From Rhodothermales bacterium (GTDB taxonomy: Bacteria; Bacteroidota; Rhodothermia; Rhodothermales; JANQRZ01), in contig OZ244038.1 in the NCBI GenBank assembly GCA_965215145.1, positions 956,579 through 1,020,578 of the forward strand: 64,000 nt of DNA, given 5' to 3'. Below are positions 2,944 to 52,090 of this stretch, piece by piece (position 1 is the stretch's first letter; each line of letters starts with the position of its first letter). The notes beneath the pieces are model-generated. The model was given only the letters and a program-made list of their open reading frames with translations. It made no database searches and was not told the DNA's origin. Both the position numbers and the translations under genes were made by a program.

Positions 2944-3927
2944 ATGACTGCGACCCGCCGCGCCCTTCTCGACCTCCTTGCTGCCCGCTCGGGACAGACA
3001 CAGACCGAGTTGGCCAAGCGGGCCAGGGTGTCAACCCGCACGGCCCGCCGTCACCTCAGGGCGCTGGTGAAGGAGGGAACGGTCCTCGTCGAGGCCGACG
3101 GTCCGGCCTGCCGCTACCACCTCGCTCCCCACGCTTCACCCGCCGCTCCGCTCCCGCCCCTCACGGAGGGGGAGGCCGAGGCGCTCTCCGTCGCCGCCCT
3201 CGCCGCGAGGCCCCTGCTGGCGCCGACGCCGCTCGCACCGGCCCTCGACGCCGCAGCGGCCAGGCTCCGCCGGGCCTGGCTCGCCGACGTCTTCTCGTTT
3301 GAGCCCGAGGCGGAGGCTGCCCTCTGGAGCTTCGACGGCGCCGCGGGCGGGGAGACGCCCCCGGCCGCGGCCACCCTCTTCCGCGACCTCCTCCGTGCCG
3401 TCCGCGACCAGAACCCCATCATCGCCGACTACTTCACGGCGAGCCGGGGCGTGCTCTCGCGGGGTCGGCGGCTCCACCCGCTCGGCTTCCTCGTCCGCAA
3501 TGGGGCGTGGATCGTCGCTGCGTACGACCCGGCGAAGGGGAGGCCGCTCGACTTCGCCCTCGCGGGCTTCCGCGCCGTCACGCGGCTGGAGGACGAGCAC
3601 GCGCCCCGCCCCGAGGGCTTCGACCTTCACGCCTACGCCCGCGACCGCTTCGGCGCCCTCGCCGGTGACGCCGTTCACGAGGTCCGCCTCCTCGTTGAGG
3701 TGGAGGCCGTCCCGTACTTCGAGCGGAAGACGTACAACCCCACGCAGCAGATCGAGGAGCGGCGCTTGGACGGTCGGGCGGTAGTGTCGTTCGAGGTGGA
3801 GGGGCTGGAGTCCGTGGCGTCGTGGTGCCTCTCGTGGGGGCCGAAGCTGCGGGTGCTGGCGCCGACGGAGCTGGCCGCGCGCGTGGCGGAGGCGCACCGG
3901 GAGGCCGCGGCCCGCTACGCCACCTAA
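2944..3927 (+). CDS. HTH + WYL domain transcriptional regulator (YafY-like), cas-associated
   Basis: The N-terminal winged-HTH reads LLDLLAARSGQTQTELAKRARVSTRTARRHLRALVKEG. The central WYL-like block reads RRLHPLGFLVRNGAWIVAAYDPAKGRPLDFALAGFRAV. The gene sits directly upstream of and co-directional with cas1. Confidence 0.8.
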   Translation: MTATRRALLDLLAARSGQTQTELAKRARVSTRTARRHLRALVKEGTVLVEADGPACRYHLAPHASPAAPLPPLTEGEAEALSVAALAARPLLAPTPLAPALDAAAARLRRAWLADVFSFEPEAEAALWSFDGAAGGETPPAAATLFRDLLRAVRDQNPIIADYFTASRGVLSRGRRLHPLGFLVRNGAWIVAAYDPAKGRPLDFALAGFRAVTRLEDEHAPRPEGFDLHAYARDRFGALAGDAVHEVRLLVEVEAVPYFERKTYNPTQQIEERRLDGRAVVSFEVEGLESVASWCLSWGPKLRVLAPTELAARVAEAHREAAARYAT

Positions 3928-13280: not shown

Positions 13281-15208
13281 CTCCTCCCCGCGCAGGCGGG
13301 GATGACCCGCACTAGACCAACCCGAAACCGCTTGCTCCATACTCCTCCCCGCGCAGGCGGGGATGACCCCCTCTCGCACCTCTCTACTGAGATGGGCCTG
13401 AGCTCCTCCCCGCGCAGGCGGGGATGACCCTGCGGACTGGAACCGCTCGACGAAAGTTTCCGCCTCCTCCCCGCGCAGGCGGGGATGACCCCCCCATGCC
13501 CCGCATCCCCGAGCCCCCCCGCGCCTCCTCCCCGCGCAGGCGGGGATGACCCCCGGGTCGCTCATTCGTCCGTCACGAGGCATTGCTCCTCCCCGCGCAG
13601 GCGGGGATGACCCGCCCAGCGTCGGCCTGCAACCGCTGGTTCTACGCTCCTCCCCGCGCAGGCGGGGATGACCCCATCAGGCCGAGGGCGCGGCGCTGGT
13701 CGGCGTCCTCCTCCCCGCGCAGGCGGGGATGACCCCGAATACAACCGCCTCCGCGCCGACGCGGAGGACTCCTCCCCGCGCAGGCGGGGATGACCCCTAC
13801 AGCCGCGGCGACCTCACGCAGCCGCTCGTCTCCTCCCCGCGCAGGCGGGGATGACCCGCCTGAACCCCCACCCCCACTCCTATGGCCGACCTCCTCCCCG
13901 CGCAGGCGGGGATGACCCCGGTCCCGCATACGCGAAAAACCGCTACGACGCCTCCTCCCCGCGCAGGCGGGGATGACCCCGAACGAGATCGGCCCGGTGC
14001 CGTTGAGGTCGTCTCCTCCCCGCGCAGGCGGGGATGACCCCTCGCCGTCCGACAGCCACGCCGGGATGCTGTCCTCCTCCCCGCGCAGGCAGGGATGACC
14101 CCGTATACCGCTGCCCCAGGCGGTGGGGCCGACGCTCCTCCCCGCGCAGGCGGGGATGACCCCGGATCGAACATGGCCGCAATGTCCTCGCCGCGGCTCC
14201 TCCCCGCGCAGGCGGGGATGACCCCGCGGCGCAGAATGGCCGATTTCGGCCCCCTCGCTCCTCCCCGCGCAGGCGGGGATGACCCTGCTCCACCCTCAGT
14301 TATCGGTCAGCCTACGAGCTCCTCCCCGCGCAGGCGGGGATGACCCTCGCTGTCGCGGGCCGTCTGAACTACGCACTCCCTCCTCCCCGCGCAGGCGGGG
14401 ATGACCCCGGGGCCCAGACGCCGTTCGTGTGGCCCATTGACTCCTCCCCGCGCAGGCGGGGATGACCCCGGCCACTTCGACGCCGCGGCTGCGCTGCTGC
14501 CCTCCTCCCCGCGCAGGCGGGGATGACCCCCACGTCGGCCAGTCCCCACCGCCGTTGGCGAGCTCCTCCCCGCGCAGGCGGGGATGACCCGCCAAACTCA
14601 CGATCGAGTTGGCGGAACAGGTCCTCCTCCCCGCGCAGGCGGGGATGACCCCCCCTGCTAGGTTCCAAGCGTCCATAGCACCGGCTCCTCCCCGCGCAGG
14701 CGGGGATGACCCCGCCGCCCTCGACACCCTCCTCAGGTTGCTCCCCTCCTCCCCGCGCAGGCGGGGATGACCCGCGGCCGTCTCGAAGACGATCCGCCAG
14801 GGCATCCTCCTCCCCGCGCAGGCGGGGATGACCCCCTCTGATTGAGCGGAACTGCCACCCTTGGTCTCTCCTCCCCGCGCAGGCGGGGATGACCCGCGGT
14901 ATTCCCTCCGCCGCGACGGCCCCAGCTTCTCCTCCTCGCGCAGGCGGGGATGACCCTCACAAGGCGGGGTTCCCGAGCCTCGTTTTCATCTCCTCCCCGC
15001 GCAGGCGGGGATGACCCCTCGTCGGCGCGCTGCATCTCGCCGCCGGTGCCCTCCTCCCCGCGCAGGCGGGGATGACCCGTAAACCCACTACCCCCCTACC
15101 CCCCTACCCCCCTACGTTGCTCCTCCCCGCGCAGGCGGGGATGAACCTGAGCATCGTTTCCTAACGCTCCCGTTGGATGGCTCCTCTCCGTCTATGAGTG
15201 GAGGAGCC
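13281..15208 (+). CRISPR. Type I-E CRISPR array with 31 well-conserved repeats, one decayed terminal repeat and 31 spacers
   Basis: The 28-nt core CTCCTCCCCGCGCAGGCGGGGATGACCC (plus a variable 29th base) recurs with 61-bp phase from 13281 to 15120. Exceptions are spacings of 62 bp at 14135->14197 and 69 bp at 15051->15120. Variant repeats are at 14074 (G>A), 14929 (C>T) and 15120 (..GATGAACC). A 19/28-matching remnant lies at 15181..15208, exactly in phase. The ...GGGGATGACCC orientation parallels the E. coli I-E repeat. Confidence 0.97.
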
Positions 15209-23056: not shown

Positions 23057-23566
23057 CTACCGGCTTTCCCCGGCGGAGCTCGGGCGGAGGTCGGCGTCGT
23101 AGAGCCGGTACGCGAGCGCGCGCAGCGTCTCCGCGTCCTCGGCCGCGATGCGTCGGGCGAGGCCCTGGACAGAAACGGTGGCGCCGTCGGGGGAGACGCC
23201 CCGACGCTCCCAGCTCTCCTCCCCCACCGCCTCGAACGCCGCGACCAATTCTGTCCGCGCCGCGACGAGATCGGCCAGGACAGCCGGCAGGCTCAGCTCC
23301 GCCGGCTCGCTCGGCTCGGCGGCGTCGAGCGTCGGCGTGTCCTCTGCCAGCATCCGTCGGAGGTGGGGGCCGTGCACCCCCCGGTCGCGCGCGGCGAGCC
23401 CGGCCAGCGCCTCCAGCACCGACGGCTCCAGCCCGGTCAGGCCCGGCGGGCGGGCGGCGAGGAGGTCCGGCGGGAGCCGCTCCAGCAGCGGTCCCAGCGC
23501 CTCCGCCTCGACGAGGAGGTAGCGGAGCCCGTCGAGCAGGGCCTCACGCGATACATCGTTCGGCAT
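23057..23566 (-). CDS. Hypothetical protein (possibly a DinB-like helical bundle)
   Basis: A 169-aa ORF with good GC3 bias. The function is not recognisable with confidence. Confidence 0.45.
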   Translation of the reverse strand: MPNDVSREALLDGLRYLLVEAEALGPLLERLPPDLLAARPPGLTGLEPSVLEALAGLAARDRGVHGPHLRRMLAEDTPTLDAAEPSEPAELSLPAVLADLVAARTELVAAFEAVGEESWERRGVSPDGATVSVQGLARRIAAEDAETLRALAYRLYDADLRPSSAGESR

Positions 23567-23573
23567 CGCGGCG

Positions 23574-24230
23574 CTAGCCCGGAAGCTCGGTGGGGACCTC
23601 GGCGGGGTCGTGCTCGTCGGCCTCCATGATCGCCTCCGTCACGGCGTAGTCGAGGCGGTTGCGGAGGGTGTGGACGTTGTTCTCGCGCTTGAACTCCCAC
23701 GCCTCGCCGTACTGCCCGTTGCGGCGCTCTTGGAGGAAGCGGAGGCGGTCGCGGAGGTGCTCCTCCGGGACGAGGAGCCGGTCGAGGCCGAAGTGGGCCT
23801 CGTCGCGGTGCTGGAACGTGAGGTCGTACTCCTTCGACATCACGATGGCCTCCTCGGGGCAGACCTCCTCGCAGAACCCGCAGTAGATGCACCGGAGCAT
23901 GTTGATCTCGAACCACTCCGGCTCGCGCTCCTTCACGTCGTCGAAGACCTCGTGGGCCTGCATCGAGATGGCGAGGGGCGGGCAGCTCCGGGCGCAGAGG
24001 CCGCAGGCGACGCAGCGCGGGCGCCCCTCCTCCTCGACCAGCACGGGCCTCCCGCGGTATGAGTCCGGCGGGTACCACTGCTCGTCGGGGTAGCTGAACG
24101 TGTAGCGCGGCGCGCCGATCTTGCTGGCGGAGTACTTCATCCCCCGGAGGATCTCGGGGAGGTACAGCTTCTCCCAGAGGTTCAGCGTGCGCTCGTCGGG
24201 GGTCGCGTTGTTGACGGGGGTGCCGGCCAT
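23574..24230 (-). CDS. nuoI: NADH-quinone oxidoreductase subunit I-like 2x[4Fe-4S] ferredoxin
   Basis: Two CxxCxxCxxxCP motifs are present (CVACGLCARSCP and CIYCGFCEEVCP), with NuoI-like flanks (LYLPEILRGM...RYTFSYPDE). The start at MAGTPVNN (24230) is preferred over the ORF-track start at 24509. No other nuo genes are adjacent. Confidence 0.8.
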   Translation of the reverse strand: MAGTPVNNATPDERTLNLWEKLYLPEILRGMKYSASKIGAPRYTFSYPDEQWYPPDSYRGRPVLVEEEGRPRCVACGLCARSCPPLAISMQAHEVFDDVKEREPEWFEINMLRCIYCGFCEEVCPEEAIVMSKEYDLTFQHRDEAHFGLDRLLVPEEHLRDRLRFLQERRNGQYGEAWEFKRENNVHTLRNRLDYAVTEAIMEADEHDPAEVPTELPG

Positions 24231-24330
24231 GCGGGGTCGGGGGTCGGAAGGCGGGAGCGAGGCGAGTTTACGCCGGCGGCGGGCGGGGGATTCTGAAAAG
24301 CCGGTGGGCTCCGGCCGGCGGACCCGCCCC

Positions 24331-24558
24331 TCAGGCGAACGCCATCCACAGCACGACGACGAGCGAGCACGCACCGAGGCCGGCGCCGACGAGCCGCAGC
24401 GGCCGGCTCCCCCGCTGCTGCCCGACCGCGTAGAGCGCGTAGCCGAACGTGAACACCGCGTAGGCCGCGGCCTGCGGGATCTCCCCACGCACCGCGTAGG
24501 TCGCGGCAATGAAGAGGAAGAGGGCGGTAGGGAAAAGCCAGCCGAGGCGCTCGGTCAT
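24331..24558 (-). CDS. Small hypothetical membrane protein (75 aa)
   Basis: MTERLGWLFPTALFLFIAATYAVRG...LGACSLVVVLWMAFA has two or three hydrophobic segments. Confidence 0.4.
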   Translation of the reverse strand: MTERLGWLFPTALFLFIAATYAVRGEIPQAAAYAVFTFGYALYAVGQQRGSRPLRLVGAGLGACSLVVVLWMAFA

Positions 24559-24565
24559 GAAGCGG

Positions 24566-25453
24566 TCAGGGATGCGGACGGTGCGGGCGGACCTCGACGG
24601 CCAACGGGGTTTCCACAAGGGTGACGGCCTCCAGCCACGGGCGCCCGAACACGACGCGCCGGCGGAGCGCGGCCCGTGCGGCCTCGGCATCACGCGGGTC
24701 GGTGTTGGGGACCTTGTTGCTGATGTAGAGTCCGTGCGCGCCAAAATAGGCGCCGTCCATCATGCAGGCGTCGATGCGGGGCTCGGCCGCGTCGAGGTGG
24801 AACGGTTCGATGGTCGGCTCGAAGCCCTCGGCCTCGACTTCGTGGTGGAGGGTGATCGCGCCGGCGTCGCCGCTCCACGACTCCCACGTCACCGGGCCGT
24901 CCCGGAGCGGGTCCTGCCGGCCATCGACGCGCACGCCGCCGGGGTTGGCCTCGTTCCGGTACACCATCCCGACGGCTTCGGCGCTGAGGTCGAGGAAGCT
25001 CATCGCGCCGGGGATCGGGTGGACCCGCAGCACCGCCTCCGACTCGGCGTAGCCGGCGTAGAACACCCACCGCAGCTCCGTCAGCGGCCCGCTGTTGAAC
25101 CCGACGACGTGGCGGATCGCACGGACCGGCCCGCCGCGGTTGACGACGATGCCGCCCTGGCTCAGCGAGCCGGTGTAGGGCGAGCGCCAGCACACGCCCG
25201 GCTTGAACGCGATCATGTCCACGTCGAGCAGGTCCGGCCCCTCCGAGCCCGCCGAGCGGAGGTGGAGCCGGTTGAGGATCCAGCGGTCCGCGAACCCGAC
25301 GGTGTACGCCGCGGTCTCGACCGTCGTCCGCTCGGGGTTCGAGCCGAGGCGGCGGCCCGAGGGGAATCCCGCCGGCCACCCGACCCACGACGGTGCCGCC
25401 CCGCCTCGGTCGTAGGCGTCGAGGTACGGCCCCCGCTCAAATCCAGACTCGTA
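24566..25453 (-). pseudogene. Host ORF of unknown function, cut at or near its 5' end by the IS element
   Basis: The 296 codons show strong GC3 bias (..GWPAGFPSGRRLGSNPERTTVETAAYTVGFADRWILNRL...) and run directly out of the IS end. With the IS removed, the only possible upstream start is a TTG 17 nt before the insertion point, preceded by an in-frame TGA. Confidence 0.5.
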
Positions 25454-25915
25454 GGCCGTGTGAGACAATCCATGCTTGATCCAGTCCACCGCCGCCGCCA
25501 CGTGGAGCGCGCCGAGGTAGCTCTCGGCCGTCTTCTCGTAGCGCGTCGCCACCGCCCGCCACTCCTTGAGTCGGCCCCACAGTTGCTCTACCCGGTGCCG
25601 CTCGCGGTAGGCCCCCCGGTCGTAGGCCGCTCGGTCGTAGGCCGCTCGGTCGTAGGCCACGGCCGGGTGCGTCCGGTTGGCCGCGACGACGGGCTCGGCT
25701 CCGGCGATCCGGATCCCCGCCCGCCACGAGGCCGACGAGTACCCCCGGTCGCAGACGACCCGGCCCACGCGGCCGAGCCCGACCACGGCGACCAGGAGCG
25801 CGTCGGCCACGCGGAGCTCCGAGCGGTGCCCCGGCAGCAGCCGGAACGCGAGCGCCCGGCCCCGGCGGTCACAGGCGACGACGGCCTTCGTGCCGAAGCC
25901 GCCCCGGCTGCGCCC
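25454..25915 (-). CDS. IS transposase OrfB (DDE domain part), with no stop codon inside the IS
   Basis: GRSRGGFGTKAVVACDRRGRALAFRLLPGHRSE...VVCDRGYSS...YRERHRVEQLWGRLKEWRAVATRYEKTAESYLGALHVAAAVDWI is the typical IS5/IS427 C-terminal half. The frame runs through the IS end into the flanking ORF. Confidence 0.75.
25607..25664. repeat. 15-bp tandem repeat (GTAGGCCGCTCGGTC, about 3.9 copies) inside transposase OrfB
   Basis: Units start at 25607, 25622 and 25637, with a partial unit at 25652. They encode AYDRA-AYDRA-AYDRG in frame. Confidence 0.9.
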
Positions 25916-26143
25916 GAGCGCTACGTCTCGGAGCGCTACGTCTCGGAGCGCTACGTCTCGGAGCGCTACGTCTCGGAGCGCTACGTCTCGGAGCGCTACG
26001 TCTCGGAGCGCTACGTCTCGGAGCGCTACGTCTCGGAGCGCTACGTCTCGGAGCGCTACGTCTCGGAGCGCTACGTCTCGGAGCGCTACGTCTCGGAGCG
26101 CTACGTCTCGGAGCGCTACGTCTCGGAGCGCTACGTCTCGGAG
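25916..26143. repeat. 15-bp tandem repeat GAGCGCTACGTCTCG x15, plus a 3-nt partial unit
   Basis: There are fifteen perfect contiguous units in 25916..26140. Read on the minus strand they give (RDVAL)15 in the OrfB frame and contain the OrfA TAG stop in the OrfA frame. Confidence 0.97.
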
Positions 26144-26505
26144 GGGGCCGTAGCGTCGGGAGCCCCCTTCTTCGCCCCCGCCGCCTTGGGGTGGGCGCGC
26201 ACGACGGTCCCGTCGAGCATGACCGCGGCGAGGTCGGCGTGCCCGGTGTCGCGGAGGTGCTCGAAGGCCCGCTCCCAGACGCCCGAACGGGACCAGCGCT
26301 TGTGGAGTTGGGCGGCGCGCCACCAGGGCCCGAACTCGGCGGGGACGGCGCGCCAGGGTGGGCCGTTCTTGAGGCGCCAGACGACGCCCTCGACGGTGGC
26401 GCGCTCGTCGCGGACGGGGCGGCCTCGACCGGAGCGGGCGTGGTCGAGGGCGGCTTTGAGGGCGGCTTTGAGGGCGGCCCACTCGGGGTCAGTCAGCAAG
26501 GGCAT
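26131..26505 (-). CDS. IS transposase OrfA (DUF4096-like N-terminal HTH part)
   Basis: MPLLTDPEWAAL...RGRPVRDERATVEGVVWRLKNGPPWRAVPAEFGPWWRAAQLHKRWSRSGVWERAF...LDGTVVRAHPKAAGAKKG is the typical IS5/IS427 N-terminal half. Confidence 0.75.
   Translation of the reverse strand: MPLLTDPEWAALKAALKAALDHARSGRGRPVRDERATVEGVVWRLKNGPPWRAVPAEFGPWWRAAQLHKRWSRSGVWERAFEHLRDTGHADLAAVMLDGTVVRAHPKAAGAKKGAPDATAPSET
26446..26478. repeat. 12-bp tandem repeat (GAGGGCGGCTTT, about 2.75 copies) inside transposase OrfA
   Basis: Units lie at 26446..26457 and 26458..26469, with a partial unit to 26478. They encode AALKAALKAAL in frame. Confidence 0.85.
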
Positions 26506-26614
26506 GGCGTCCGTGGCGAGAGCCGGGTCAACGTCACGCCGAACCGATTTGTCTCACACGGCCTAGCGCCGCCAAGCCAAGATCGGGTGACCGAGAGTAG
26601 GGCAGGCACAAAGA

Positions 26615-26649
26615 GAGGGGGCCGGCGGGACAAGTCCGCCGACCCCCTC
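26615..26649 (-). terminator. Rho-independent-type terminator of the 26688 gene
   Basis: gagggggccggcggGAC-aa-GTCcgccgaccccctc. On the minus strand it is followed by CTCTTTGTG. Confidence 0.6.
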
Positions 26650-26687
26650 GGGCGACCGCCTGTAAAGGCGGCCTCAGCGCAGGGCCG

Positions 26688-28331
26688 CTACTTCACCAGC
26701 GAGAGCTGCCCCGTCTGCACCGCGCCGCCGACCCGGAGCCGGTAGAGGTACGTCCCGGTGGGCAGGCCCGCCGCGTCGAAGGCGGCGCTGTGGCTGCCGG
26801 CGTCGAGCTCGGCGTCGACGAGGACGGCGACCTCGCGGCCGAGCACGTCGTAGACGGCGAGGCGCACGTCGGCCGTGGCGTCGAGGGCGAAGGCGATCTG
26901 GGCCGAGCCCGCGAACGGGTTGGGGTAGACGCCGACGGCGTCCGTCGGAGCGTTCGTGACGGTGGTACCGGTGGCCTCCCACGGGCTCACGTCCGTCACG
27001 GCCCACACGAGGCCCTGGAAGGACTCGCGCCAGCGGTCGTACTCGAGCTCCGAAGCGGGATCGGTGAGGGCGACCCCGGCCTGAAGCACGGCCAACGCCG
27101 GGCGCGAACCGGTGACGACGACCGCGAAGCACTCCTGGTCCACCGACGACATCGCGCTGAAGCTGCCGATCTCGAGGCAGTACGTGTAGGTCCCCGCCGG
27201 CGCGCCGGCCGGCACCTGCTGCGTGAAGCTCGCGCCGATAGAATCGCCATCGTCGAGGCAGCCACCTCGGATTCGTCCCGAGGCCACCTGTCCCCCCTGG
27301 TCTGTATCTGCCGTGAAGTAGAGGTCGCCACAGACCTGCGCGCCGGACGTGTTCGTGACCGAGTAGTCGAAGCCGATCGAGCCGCCGGGGGCGACCGTCA
27401 GCGGGCTCGTCGCTGTGGCCGTCAGGTCAACGTCCGGAGTGGAAACGGCGTTGAGGTCTTCCACGAACCCGGTGAACACGCCGAAGTCGTCGTTGCCGTT
27501 GCCGGTGACGACGATGACGTACGTGGTGCCGGCCATGAGCATCACGCTCTCGATCCGCGAGCCGGTCTCGTCCGAGCCGGGGTAGTCGTCGTCGGAGGCG
27601 AGGAGGTTGAGGCAGGGCTCACTGGGGTCGAACGAGTCCTCGTAGAGGAAGAGGTACCCGTCGAAGTCGAAGTCGTAGTCGGCCTGGACGGCATACTCGC
27701 TGTCGCGGGGGGGCATGAACGTGAACGTCTCGTAGCGGACGGCCGTGGCGATGACCGAGGGGGAGCACGAGGTGCTCGAGACGAAGGCGCGCCGGAAGGT
27801 CGGGTCATCGGTGGTGTCCCCACCGAACGTAAAGACGGTCTGCGGGAGGTCCCCCGTCCGGGTCACGGTGCCGTTGTAGGCGACGTACTCGTCGTTGCGA
27901 TAGGAGCTCACGACGATGATGTAGTCCGTCCCCGCTCGGAACCGGAGATCAAAGAGCTCGCCGGGGCTGGACGTGGCGATGTCGTCTCCGATCAGGTTCT
28001 TACAAGGATCGTTGGGGTCGAACGACCCCTCGTAGACGTAGAGGTAGCCGTCGTCGCTGGTCCCCGGGGGGACGGGCGAGAACGCCACGAAGATGTTGTA
28101 GAAGCCGTCCTGCGAGGGCGTGAAGGTGTAGGCGTCGTAGGCGACGTTCGTACCGAAGCTGGAGGGGTTGCACGACCCCCCGAACACGAAGGCCCGGGCG
28201 AAGGTGGGGTCGGTGGGGTCGGTGGCGCCGCTGAAGGAGAACACGACCTGGGCAGAGGACGGGCTCGCACCGAGGGCCGAGACCATGGTGAGGAGCAGGA
28301 CGCTCTGCAGGAGGGGTAGGCGATATCGCAT
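26688..28331 (-). CDS. Secreted protein with duplicated N-terminal modules and a T9SS C-terminal sorting domain (paralog 1)
   Basis: Signal peptide MRYRLPLLQSVLLLTMVSALGASPSSAQ. Two internal repeats (VFSFSGATDPTDPTF..., VFTFGGDTTDDPTF...). The C-terminus reads GVYPNPFAGSAQIAFALDATADVRLAVYDVLGREVAVLVD...GTYLYRLRVGGAVQTGQLSLVK (Por/T9SS CTD pattern). Confidence 0.85.
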   Translation of the reverse strand: MRYRLPLLQSVLLLTMVSALGASPSSAQVVFSFSGATDPTDPTFARAFVFGGSCNPSSFGTNVAYDAYTFTPSQDGFYNIFVAFSPVPPGTSDDGYLYVYEGSFDPNDPCKNLIGDDIATSSPGELFDLRFRAGTDYIIVVSSYRNDEYVAYNGTVTRTGDLPQTVFTFGGDTTDDPTFRRAFVSSTSCSPSVIATAVRYETFTFMPPRDSEYAVQADYDFDFDGYLFLYEDSFDPSEPCLNLLASDDDYPGSDETGSRIESVMLMAGTTYVIVVTGNGNDDFGVFTGFVEDLNAVSTPDVDLTATATSPLTVAPGGSIGFDYSVTNTSGAQVCGDLYFTADTDQGGQVASGRIRGGCLDDGDSIGASFTQQVPAGAPAGTYTYCLEIGSFSAMSSVDQECFAVVVTGSRPALAVLQAGVALTDPASELEYDRWRESFQGLVWAVTDVSPWEATGTTVTNAPTDAVGVYPNPFAGSAQIAFALDATADVRLAVYDVLGREVAVLVDAELDAGSHSAAFDAAGLPTGTYLYRLRVGGAVQTGQLSLVK

Positions 28332-51868: not shown

Positions 51869-52019
51869 GGAGCCACTTGGGGAGGGGGGCTAAGGAGGAC
51901 GACCTCCGCCAATCTACGCCCTCGTTGAACTTGCAGGCTCGGATCAGGCACCACCGTTCGCCGAGTCAAGGGGCCCAATCGGAGAATCCGGCGAGGTGCG
52001 CCAAAGGCGACGTAGGTTT

Positions 52020-52090
52020 GCGCCTCGACGGCCTGCGCCTCGACGGCCTGCGCCTCGACGGCCTGCGCCTCGACGGCCTGCGCCTCGACC
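52020..52090. repeat. 15-bp tandem repeat GCGCCTCGACGGCCT, about 4.7 copies
   Basis: Perfect units start at 52020, 52035, 52050 and 52065, with a partial unit from 52080. The array ends about 32 nt upstream of the ppk1 ATG. Confidence 0.95.

Follow-up and report, generated by a model that had tools for sequence, protein, structure and literature searches.

Insertion sequences (ISs) of the IS427 group from Paracoccus are 832-865 bp in length, with 13-21 bp inverted repeats and 2-bp direct repeats (PMC3281130). Members of the group have two overlapping ORFs with a conserved frameshift motif, and the full DDE motif is present only in the fusion protein (PMC3281130). In the IS1 and IS3 families, the fusion protein is made by programmed -1 frameshifting, and the low efficiency of the shift limits the supply of transposase (PMC5009743). 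Here, we analysed an element of the IS427 type that lies within a 64-kb stretch of DNA (the window) and whose transposase reading frames contain three tandem repeat arrays, the largest of which is a minisatellite located in the predicted catalytic core.

Identification of the element and its closest relatives

The closest relative found, designated L005, is located on the chromosome of Rubrivirga sp. IMCC43871 (NZ_CP177355.1). It is 852 bp in length and is 86.6% identical to the element at the nucleotide level and 89% at the amino acid level. Further copies of the same type were found in a Rubrivirga MAG (L008) and on metagenome contigs (L033 and L055). The element and its coding regions are listed below.

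25454..26563, minus strand: IS427-group (IS5-family) insertion sequence, assigned from its inverted repeats, Pfam, NCBIfam NF033580, collapsed length and identity to L005
26549..26563, minus strand: left inverted repeat (IS orientation), GGCCGTGTGAGACAA; GCGC-TA is directly before it and L005 has the same upstream flank
25454..25468, minus strand: right inverted repeat, TTGTCTCACACGGCC; the OrfB frame passes through it with no stop codon
26131..26505, minus strand: OrfA, 124 aa, DUF4096 (HTH-like N-terminal part); its stop is the TAG of the first unit of the large array
25454..26170, minus strand: OrfB-frame (-1) part of the transposase, with ALGRSRGG, the second Asp (25748-25750) and the Glu (25586-25588); dN/dS 0.15 against L005

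Pfam searches detected DUF4096 in OrfA (1e-19), and both DDE_Tnp_1_2 (6e-12) and DDE_Tnp_1 (6e-10) in the OrfB frame. The NCBIfam model NF033580 (transpos_IS5_3) matched the collapsed conceptual OrfA-OrfB fusion at 230 bits, against a cut-off of 110, and covered positions 3-258 of 258. The inverted repeats GGCCGTGTGAGACAA and TTGTCTCACACGGCC are perfect over 15 bp, or over 17 bp with the flanking TA, and are the single such pair in the window, where the inverted-repeat search found only one copy of the element. The element is 1110 bp in length as found and 858 bp after removal of 252 bp of extra repeat units. These results agree with a preliminary description of the locus, which had recognised an IS5/IS427-like element with an OrfA, a -1-frame OrfB and perfect 15-bp inverted repeats, and had attributed about 250 bp of its 1110 bp to internal duplication. 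These features place the element in the IS427 group (IS5 family), of which it is a new member.

OrfA also holds the start of the DDE domain together with the first catalytic Asp (codon 26212-26214). In an alignment of 57 sequences, D98 (in DGT), D253 (in CDRGY), Y300, R303, E307 and K314 were found in nearly invariant columns. Outside the repeats the element looks intact, as the inverted repeats are perfect and the DDE and YREK residues are kept, and no stops or frameshifts were found in OrfA or in the OrfB frame. L005 has the same inverted repeats, the same left GCGC-TA target, the same 62-nt junction class and the same position of the OrfA TAG. In contrast to the element, it has a single unit at all three repeat sites, an intact A_AAG_GGG heptamer and a TAG stop codon made together with the target.

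The recoding site

The two reading frames are joined at a purine run.

26161..26175, minus strand: recoding site, purine run GCGAAGAAGGGGGCT, with the in-phase heptamer G_AAG_GGG at 26170-26164

In the element and about 50 related loci, the DGTxxRAH and LGRSRGG motifs were always in a -1 relation, either 41 or 62 nt apart, and a purine run of the form A(2-6)G(5-7) between the two motifs was common to about 50 related loci. L005 reads GCG AAA AAG GGG GCT, giving A_AAG_GGG, whereas the element reads GCG AAG AAG GGG GCT, giving G_AAG_GGG. Compared to L005, one synonymous A-to-G change (AAAAAG to AAGAAG) has therefore cost the first slippery position, and the element has no in-phase slippery heptamer of the form X_XXY_YYZ. 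An in-phase A_AAG_GGG or A_AAA_AAG is present in L005 and many other relatives. Since some relatives have only an out-of-phase purine run, transcriptional slippage instead of a ribosomal shift is also possible.

The junction peptide in the -1 frame is conserved between the element (GSRRYGPLRDVALGRS) and L005 (GSRRHGPVVDVALGRS), and the dN/dS values relative to L005 were 0.10 for OrfA and 0.15 for OrfB. It follows that the two-frame organisation works in this lineage, and that the lineage remained functional until recently. A local hairpin was predicted downstream of the shift site, with z-scores of +1.0 and +0.9. No conserved or covarying stimulatory RNA structure was detected in the 13 junctions of the 62-nt class, for which the consensus was -4.9 kcal/mol. 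When single sequences of the junction and of the array were folded as RNA or DNA, only the plus-strand ssDNA of the array (z = -3.3) did better than shuffled sequences, and an Rfam search over positions 24000-28000 returned nothing except one sub-threshold chance match.

Three tandem arrays within the transposase frames

Tandem Repeats Finder (TRF) was used to delimit the arrays.

26446..26478, minus strand: 12-bp repeat x2.8 (AALKAALKAAL), 100% matches, in the first predicted helix; relatives have one unit fewer
25916..26140, minus strand: 15-bp repeat x15, unit CGAGACGTAGCGCTC, 15 identical units; relatives have one unit
25607..25658, minus strand: 15-bp repeat x3.5 (AYDRA), AYDRAAYDRAAYDRGAY, 94% matches; relatives have two units fewer

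TRF reported the large array as 15 bp x15.2 at 25916-26143 with 100% matches. Its unit, CGAGACGTAGCGCTC, matched 15 times head-to-tail on the minus strand and nowhere else in the window, with 0.6 matches expected by chance. As had been described, the array starts where OrfA ends and has no stop codon in the frame of OrfB: it reads E-T-stop-R-S in the OrfA frame and (RDVAL)x15 in the OrfB frame, and the -1 frame over the junction is GPL(RDVAL)x15 GRSRGG. The array encodes 75 residues in all and adds 70 residues to the ancestral single unit. The AYDRA array directly precedes the Y(2)R(3)E(6)K block (25565-25609), which is where the preliminary description had placed it, although the count given there, about 3.9 units, was higher than the 3.5 reported by TRF. 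Two of its units are identical and the third is off by 2 nt, which implies at least two expansion steps. All three arrays were borne out as real by TRF, and all three are expansions compared to every relative examined.

Four perfect tandem repeats with a period of at least 12 are present in the window, and three of them are inside the 1.1-kb element, a clustering far beyond chance. Such clustering is consistent with relaxed constraint on the IS. Elsewhere, the window consists mostly of coding sequence under constraint. The fourth array in the window is a perfect 15 bp x4.7 repeat at 52019-52089. Exact tandem duplications of period 7-11 were considered as a measure of background and were found to be uninformative, since triplet shuffles yield about as many. 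Candidate seeds could be recognised for all three arrays: two copies of GCCGCCCTC at a distance of 12 bp, two of GCCTAC at a distance of 15 bp and, for the large array, two of CTC at a distance of 15 bp around CGAGACGTAGCG.

In protein and DNA alignments, AALKAAL, (A/S)YDRAAY and ...DVAL were all single in L005, L008, L006/L007, L033 and the full-length homologs P0001-P0036, and L005 contained no tandem repeats. Scans of genomes and metagenomes returned no other carrier of the array. Repeat-number variation was not seen among the nearest relatives, which have at most 89% amino acid identity and are all single-unit. A two-unit DNA pattern had no match in viral contigs, and a plasmid collection contained distant relatives only (<60% identity). 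Two loci that had been considered as relatives with ~300-bp inserts (L046 and L057) were rejected, as they proved to be adjacent duplicated OrfA or IS copies. Since L005 has one unit per site, all three expansions are young and confined to this copy. Not one base differs among the 15 units, against a divergence of 13% between the element and L005, so the large expansion is young.

Frame preservation

All three expansions keep the reading frame, which the preliminary description had interpreted as a sign either of selection on the product or of contingency-like control of transposase expression through repeat number. The window is 72% GC, with a GC3 of 0.92-0.94 in the genes examined. To quantify the spacing of microhomologies, exact repeats were counted in the window minus the IS and the CRISPR array. 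Of the exact 5-, 6-, 7- and 8-mers recurring 9-30 nt apart, 66%, 72%, 77% and 81%, respectively, were at a spacing of 3n; multiples of 3 account for only 8 of the 22 distances in that range. In the collapsed IS alone, the corresponding values were 65% for 5-mers and 80% for 6-mers. A mutational bias of ~0.7 predicts that all of three events will fall in frame roughly a third of the time.

Duplications were also found in related elements. L001 has a 14-bp frame-breaking duplication (TAGCCCACGCGCTG x2) that ends at the homologous position of the large array, L006 and L007, which are two copies in one Rubricoccaceae MAG, have a common 20-bp frame-breaking duplication in OrfA, and L002 has nested 15-bp duplications elsewhere in OrfB. 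Across the clade, five of seven expansions are in frame (three of three in the element), for which a flat null of 1/3 gives about 0.05, and some filtering by function may lie behind this excess. Given the 3n spacing of microhomologies and the frame-breaking duplications of 14 bp and 20 bp in sister elements, frame preservation was rejected as a signal of selection. The large array also does not provide a frame or on/off switch, because its unit is 15 bp, OrfA ends in the first unit and OrfB is open at any count. The proposal of contingency-like control was abandoned for the same reasons, as the unit cannot toggle the frame and the end of OrfA is independent of the count.

Position of the repeats in the transposase

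In the collapsed fusion, the DDE_Tnp_1 domain extends over residues 91-254 across the junction, beginning in OrfA. In the expanded fusion, the domain is split by the array and the match resumes only after it. An AlphaFold model built with 57 sequences had a mean pLDDT of 77 with a confident core, which was predicted to be RNase-H-like and whose fold matched the catalytic domains of integrase, Mos1 and ISCth4. The array was modelled as a low-confidence helical excursion (residues 120-193, pLDDT about 50-70) between the strands at 94-102 and 206-212. Since DDE_Tnp_1 is split and strands flank the array, the array is located inside the catalytic core and does not form an inter-domain linker. The model thus places it as a 70-residue insertion within the RNase-H-like core, between the first and second catalytic Asp. 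A 75-residue linker had been proposed earlier; the array does encode 75 residues, but these are inside the DDE_Tnp_1 domain, and the gain is 70. The AYDRA repeat adds 10 residues just before Y(2)R(3)E(6)K, and the AALK repeat makes the first helix one turn longer.

Flanks of the element

The right end of the element abuts a truncated gene.

24566..25453, minus strand: conserved hypothetical gene with a 5' truncation, directly next to the right inverted repeat and in the same frame as OrfB; GC3 0.93

The bases that come after the right inverted repeat are TAG(CGC) in L005, L033 and L055, where the stop codon of OrfB is formed by the element end plus the target. In the element, the flank has TAC in place of TAG and the OrfB frame runs on for 295 codons to 24566. 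The truncated gene aligns to residues 200-484 of P0121 and residues 173-461 of P0124, beginning exactly at the IS boundary, and corresponds to the region from about residue 173/200 to the end of homologs of 460-500 aa. Its N-terminal ~170-200 residues are not encoded anywhere in the window. On the downstream side, synteny with L062 is retained (a Fer4 gene and a 189-aa protein), while the upstream neighbours differ. Because the start of the gene is missing and the upstream neighbours differ from those of L062, the right end must border a deletion or rearrangement. Such a break is consistent with intramolecular or replicative transposition, as reported for the IS427-group element IS1248 (PMC3281130), or with recombination between two IS copies.

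In L005, the palindromic target GCGC-TA-GCGC shows a clean duplication of TA, unlike the flanks of the element. TA is present on both sides of the element, as had been described, but the flanks are not contiguous DNA. The duplication claimed earlier is not demonstrated, since the right flank starts partway into a gene and there is no single interrupted site, and a simple insertion with TA duplication was rejected as unproven on these grounds. The flanking TA reflects target preference.

Discussion

Collectively, these results point with good confidence to slippage seeded by microhomology and then to runaway expansion, in an IS copy on which selection probably no longer acts. According to this explanation, an IS427-group element in a Rubrivirga/Rubricoccaceae-type genome, with its transposase produced by -1 recoding at the purine run, would have gained one extra 12-bp unit by slippage between the two copies of GCCGCCCTC 12 bp apart, and two extra 15-bp units by slippage between the GCCTAC motifs 15 bp apart. 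The 15-bp segment flanked by CTC...CTC, which falls after the OrfA stop codon and before the conserved codons for G-R-S-R-G-G, would have undergone runaway growth to 15 units once several units existed. The expansions would be in frame because microhomologies are mostly at 3n in a 93% GC3 genome, and selection on the product would be unnecessary. The copy is probably impaired in transposition, since it has 70 residues inserted between beta-strand 1 (with the first Asp) and beta-strand 2 and 10 residues by YREK, as well as a weakened slippery heptamer and a C-terminus that reads into the truncated neighbour gene. The slippage mechanism, the loss of activity and the neutrality are what we infer; the analysis itself showed the anatomy and family of the element, the single units of its relatives, the periodicity bias, the duplications that break the frame in sister elements and the truncation of the neighbouring gene. 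Slippage in a decaying copy had been mentioned in the preliminary description as a fallback, and it is the reading that the evidence favours.

A different explanation would be that the segment from the OrfA stop to G-R-S-R-G-G is an intrinsic slippage hot spot of the IS lineage, regardless of selection, which is compatible with the slippage explanation given above but which we consider unlikely. The element and L001 have independent duplications at the homologous position, and the fact that the same ~15 nt were duplicated in both hints at a local hot spot or a special tolerance of the site; more than 40 related loci, comprising most relatives, nevertheless lack a duplication there. Such a hot spot might arise, for example, through an inverted repeat (GACGCTACG / CGTAGCG(C)TC) that forms a hairpin in ssDNA: in the centroid fold, the single-unit RNA forms a 12-bp hairpin with the repeat unit as its 3' arm, and the plus-strand ssDNA of the array is more stably folded than shuffled versions, but the hairpin is not conserved in L005 or the 62-nt class and the single-unit fold z-scores are not significant. 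It is less likely still that the unit count, or the whole 15-unit array, is an artefact of a shorter repeat being expanded or looped in a short-read assembly. Fifteen identical units over 225 bp do exceed typical 150-bp reads, and an independent copy of the array was not found in any collection searched. Against this, the array is inside a contiguous 64-kb stretch, the two other expansions of the element and the array at 52019-52089 are well within read length, and similar perfect arrays are present in the flanks of related loci (18 bp x5.1 in L007 and 18 bp x4.2 in L003).

We regard as very improbable the idea that the array is a variable-number tandem repeat (VNTR) in a tolerant surface loop, with the copy number tuning the transposase or the OrfA/OrfAB output and the frame kept by selection. 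The three in-frame expansions would be expected under it, but codon periodicity explains the in-frame bias, and the 14-bp and 20-bp duplications of L001 and L006/L007 break the frame. The loop from DGTxxRAH to LGRSRGG is naturally variable, with its 41-nt and 62-nt classes, and duplication recurs at the same site in L001, yet no relative has more than one unit and none was matched in viral contigs. The element is otherwise intact, and its dN/dS values are 0.10-0.15; however, OrfA is unchanged at any unit count, the slippery heptamer is degraded, and no conserved RNA structure ties the array to the shift site (fold z-scores of -1.0 to +1.0). A combined form, in which the junction is a hot spot and the array is a copy-number-variable insert in the beta1-beta2 loop that tunes the transposase as a minisatellite rheostat, has a very slight probability, which it keeps because the L001 duplication is independent and the element is otherwise intact.

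Nothing in these results points to a new mechanism, and the slippage explanation leaves two curiosities, the minisatellite in the transposase core and the stop codon supplied by the target. The element is a clean natural case of minisatellite growth within the catalytic domain of a transposase, and belongs to an IS427-group lineage that obtains its stop codon from a CTAG-like target. It also provides a caution for very GC-rich genomes, in which codon periodicity alone makes most slippage duplications in-frame, and in which in-frame preservation is weak evidence for selection. If the array were variable and the element active, it would be a natural system for studying the tolerance of a DDE transposase to insertions in the beta1-beta2 loop.

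Compared to known systems, the element is most like the IS427-group members IS1248, ISPaes1 and ISPpa2/6 of Paracoccus, with which it shares a collapsed size of ~850 bp, 15-bp terminal repeats, TA flanks, overlapping ORFs with conserved -1 recoding, and a DDE triad that is complete only in the fusion. Its protein identity to alphaproteobacterial members of the group is only about 45-50%. Unlike them, it has 252 bp of internal tandem expansion, the OrfB stop of its lineage comes from the target (TAG) and is outside the element, and the shift motif, which in its lineage is A_AAG_GGG or a purine run, has decayed to G_AAG_GGG in this copy. As in IS1 and IS3, an upstream DNA-binding ORF is fused to a -1 catalytic ORF at a slippery run; in contrast to these families, the first catalytic Asp is in OrfA and no conserved downstream stimulator was detected. 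The large array resembles bacterial VNTR and contingency loci in its perfect head-to-tail units, its probable microhomology-seeded origin and an instability that is expected to rise with copy number, but its unit is a multiple of 3, and it is located downstream of the OrfA stop and inside the catalytic domain of a transposase.

Duplications in and around related IS copies

Internal duplications were also found in IS copies related to the element in the window. In the L001 copy, a 14-bp duplication (TAGCCCACGCGCTG x2, 3039-3066) extends from the OrfA stop to just ahead of the G-R-S-R-G-G codons and occupies the same homologous site as the 15x array of the window. This duplication turns the -1 relation between the OrfA and OrfB frames into +1, and the purine run of L001 is degraded too. 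Nested 15-bp duplications in L002 (438-486) give rise to WRAVATRAVATRYVATRYEK within the conserved RAVATRYEK block of P0030, the closest OrfB homolog. The IS copies of L006 and L007, located at distant sites on a single Rubricoccaceae MAG contig, carry an identical frame-breaking 20-bp duplication in OrfA (2601-2641 in both loci). That two distant copies have this duplication in common implies that it was spread by mobilisation in trans or by gene conversion. Near-perfect arrays were also detected in the DNA flanking two IS copies:

L007 2360-2451: 18 bp x5.1, adjoining the left inverted repeat
L003 1320-1588: two arrays, 18 bp x4.2 and 75 bp x2.4

In these high-GC genomes, short arrays of this kind may occur frequently.

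Other features of the window

The gene adjoining the right inverted repeat and two further repeat arrays were located as follows:

24566-25453, minus strand: 5'-truncated gene, joined in phase to the OrfB frame of the IS
52019-52089: perfect 15-bp x4.7 tandem repeat of TGCGCCTCGACGGCC, apparently intergenic, with an ATG directly downstream
13585-14835: CRISPR-like array, 61-bp period, ~20 repeat copies of CTCCTCCCCGCGCAGGCGGGGATGACCCC

The truncated gene belongs to a family of 460-500 aa proteins without a Pfam match (P0121-P0136), some of which have lipoprotein-like N-termini. Downstream of it, a Fer4 gene (23646-24230) and a gene for a 189-aa protein (23075-23590) are syntenic with locus L062. 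Besides the repeats of the IS, the array at 52019-52089 is the sole perfect repeat with a period of at least 12 in the 64-kb window. A blastn search of the IS against the window returned no significant match to the CRISPR-like array.

Transposase termination and recoding

No transposase stop codon is present within the IS of L005 (2443-3294; Rubrivirga sp. IMCC43871, the nearest relative) or of the metagenome contigs L033 and L055. The stop is instead made of the last bases of the IS together with the target (GCC|TAG), and the target of this IS type looks palindromic (GCGC-TA-GCGC). Among the related loci, the recoding run ranges from A2G7 to A6G5, while its spacing is constant at 41 or 62 nt. 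Several of the elements compared at this site are without any in-phase X_XXY_YYZ heptamer, and this feature of their sequences raises transcriptional slippage as a possible alternative to ribosomal frameshifting for recoding in the IS group.
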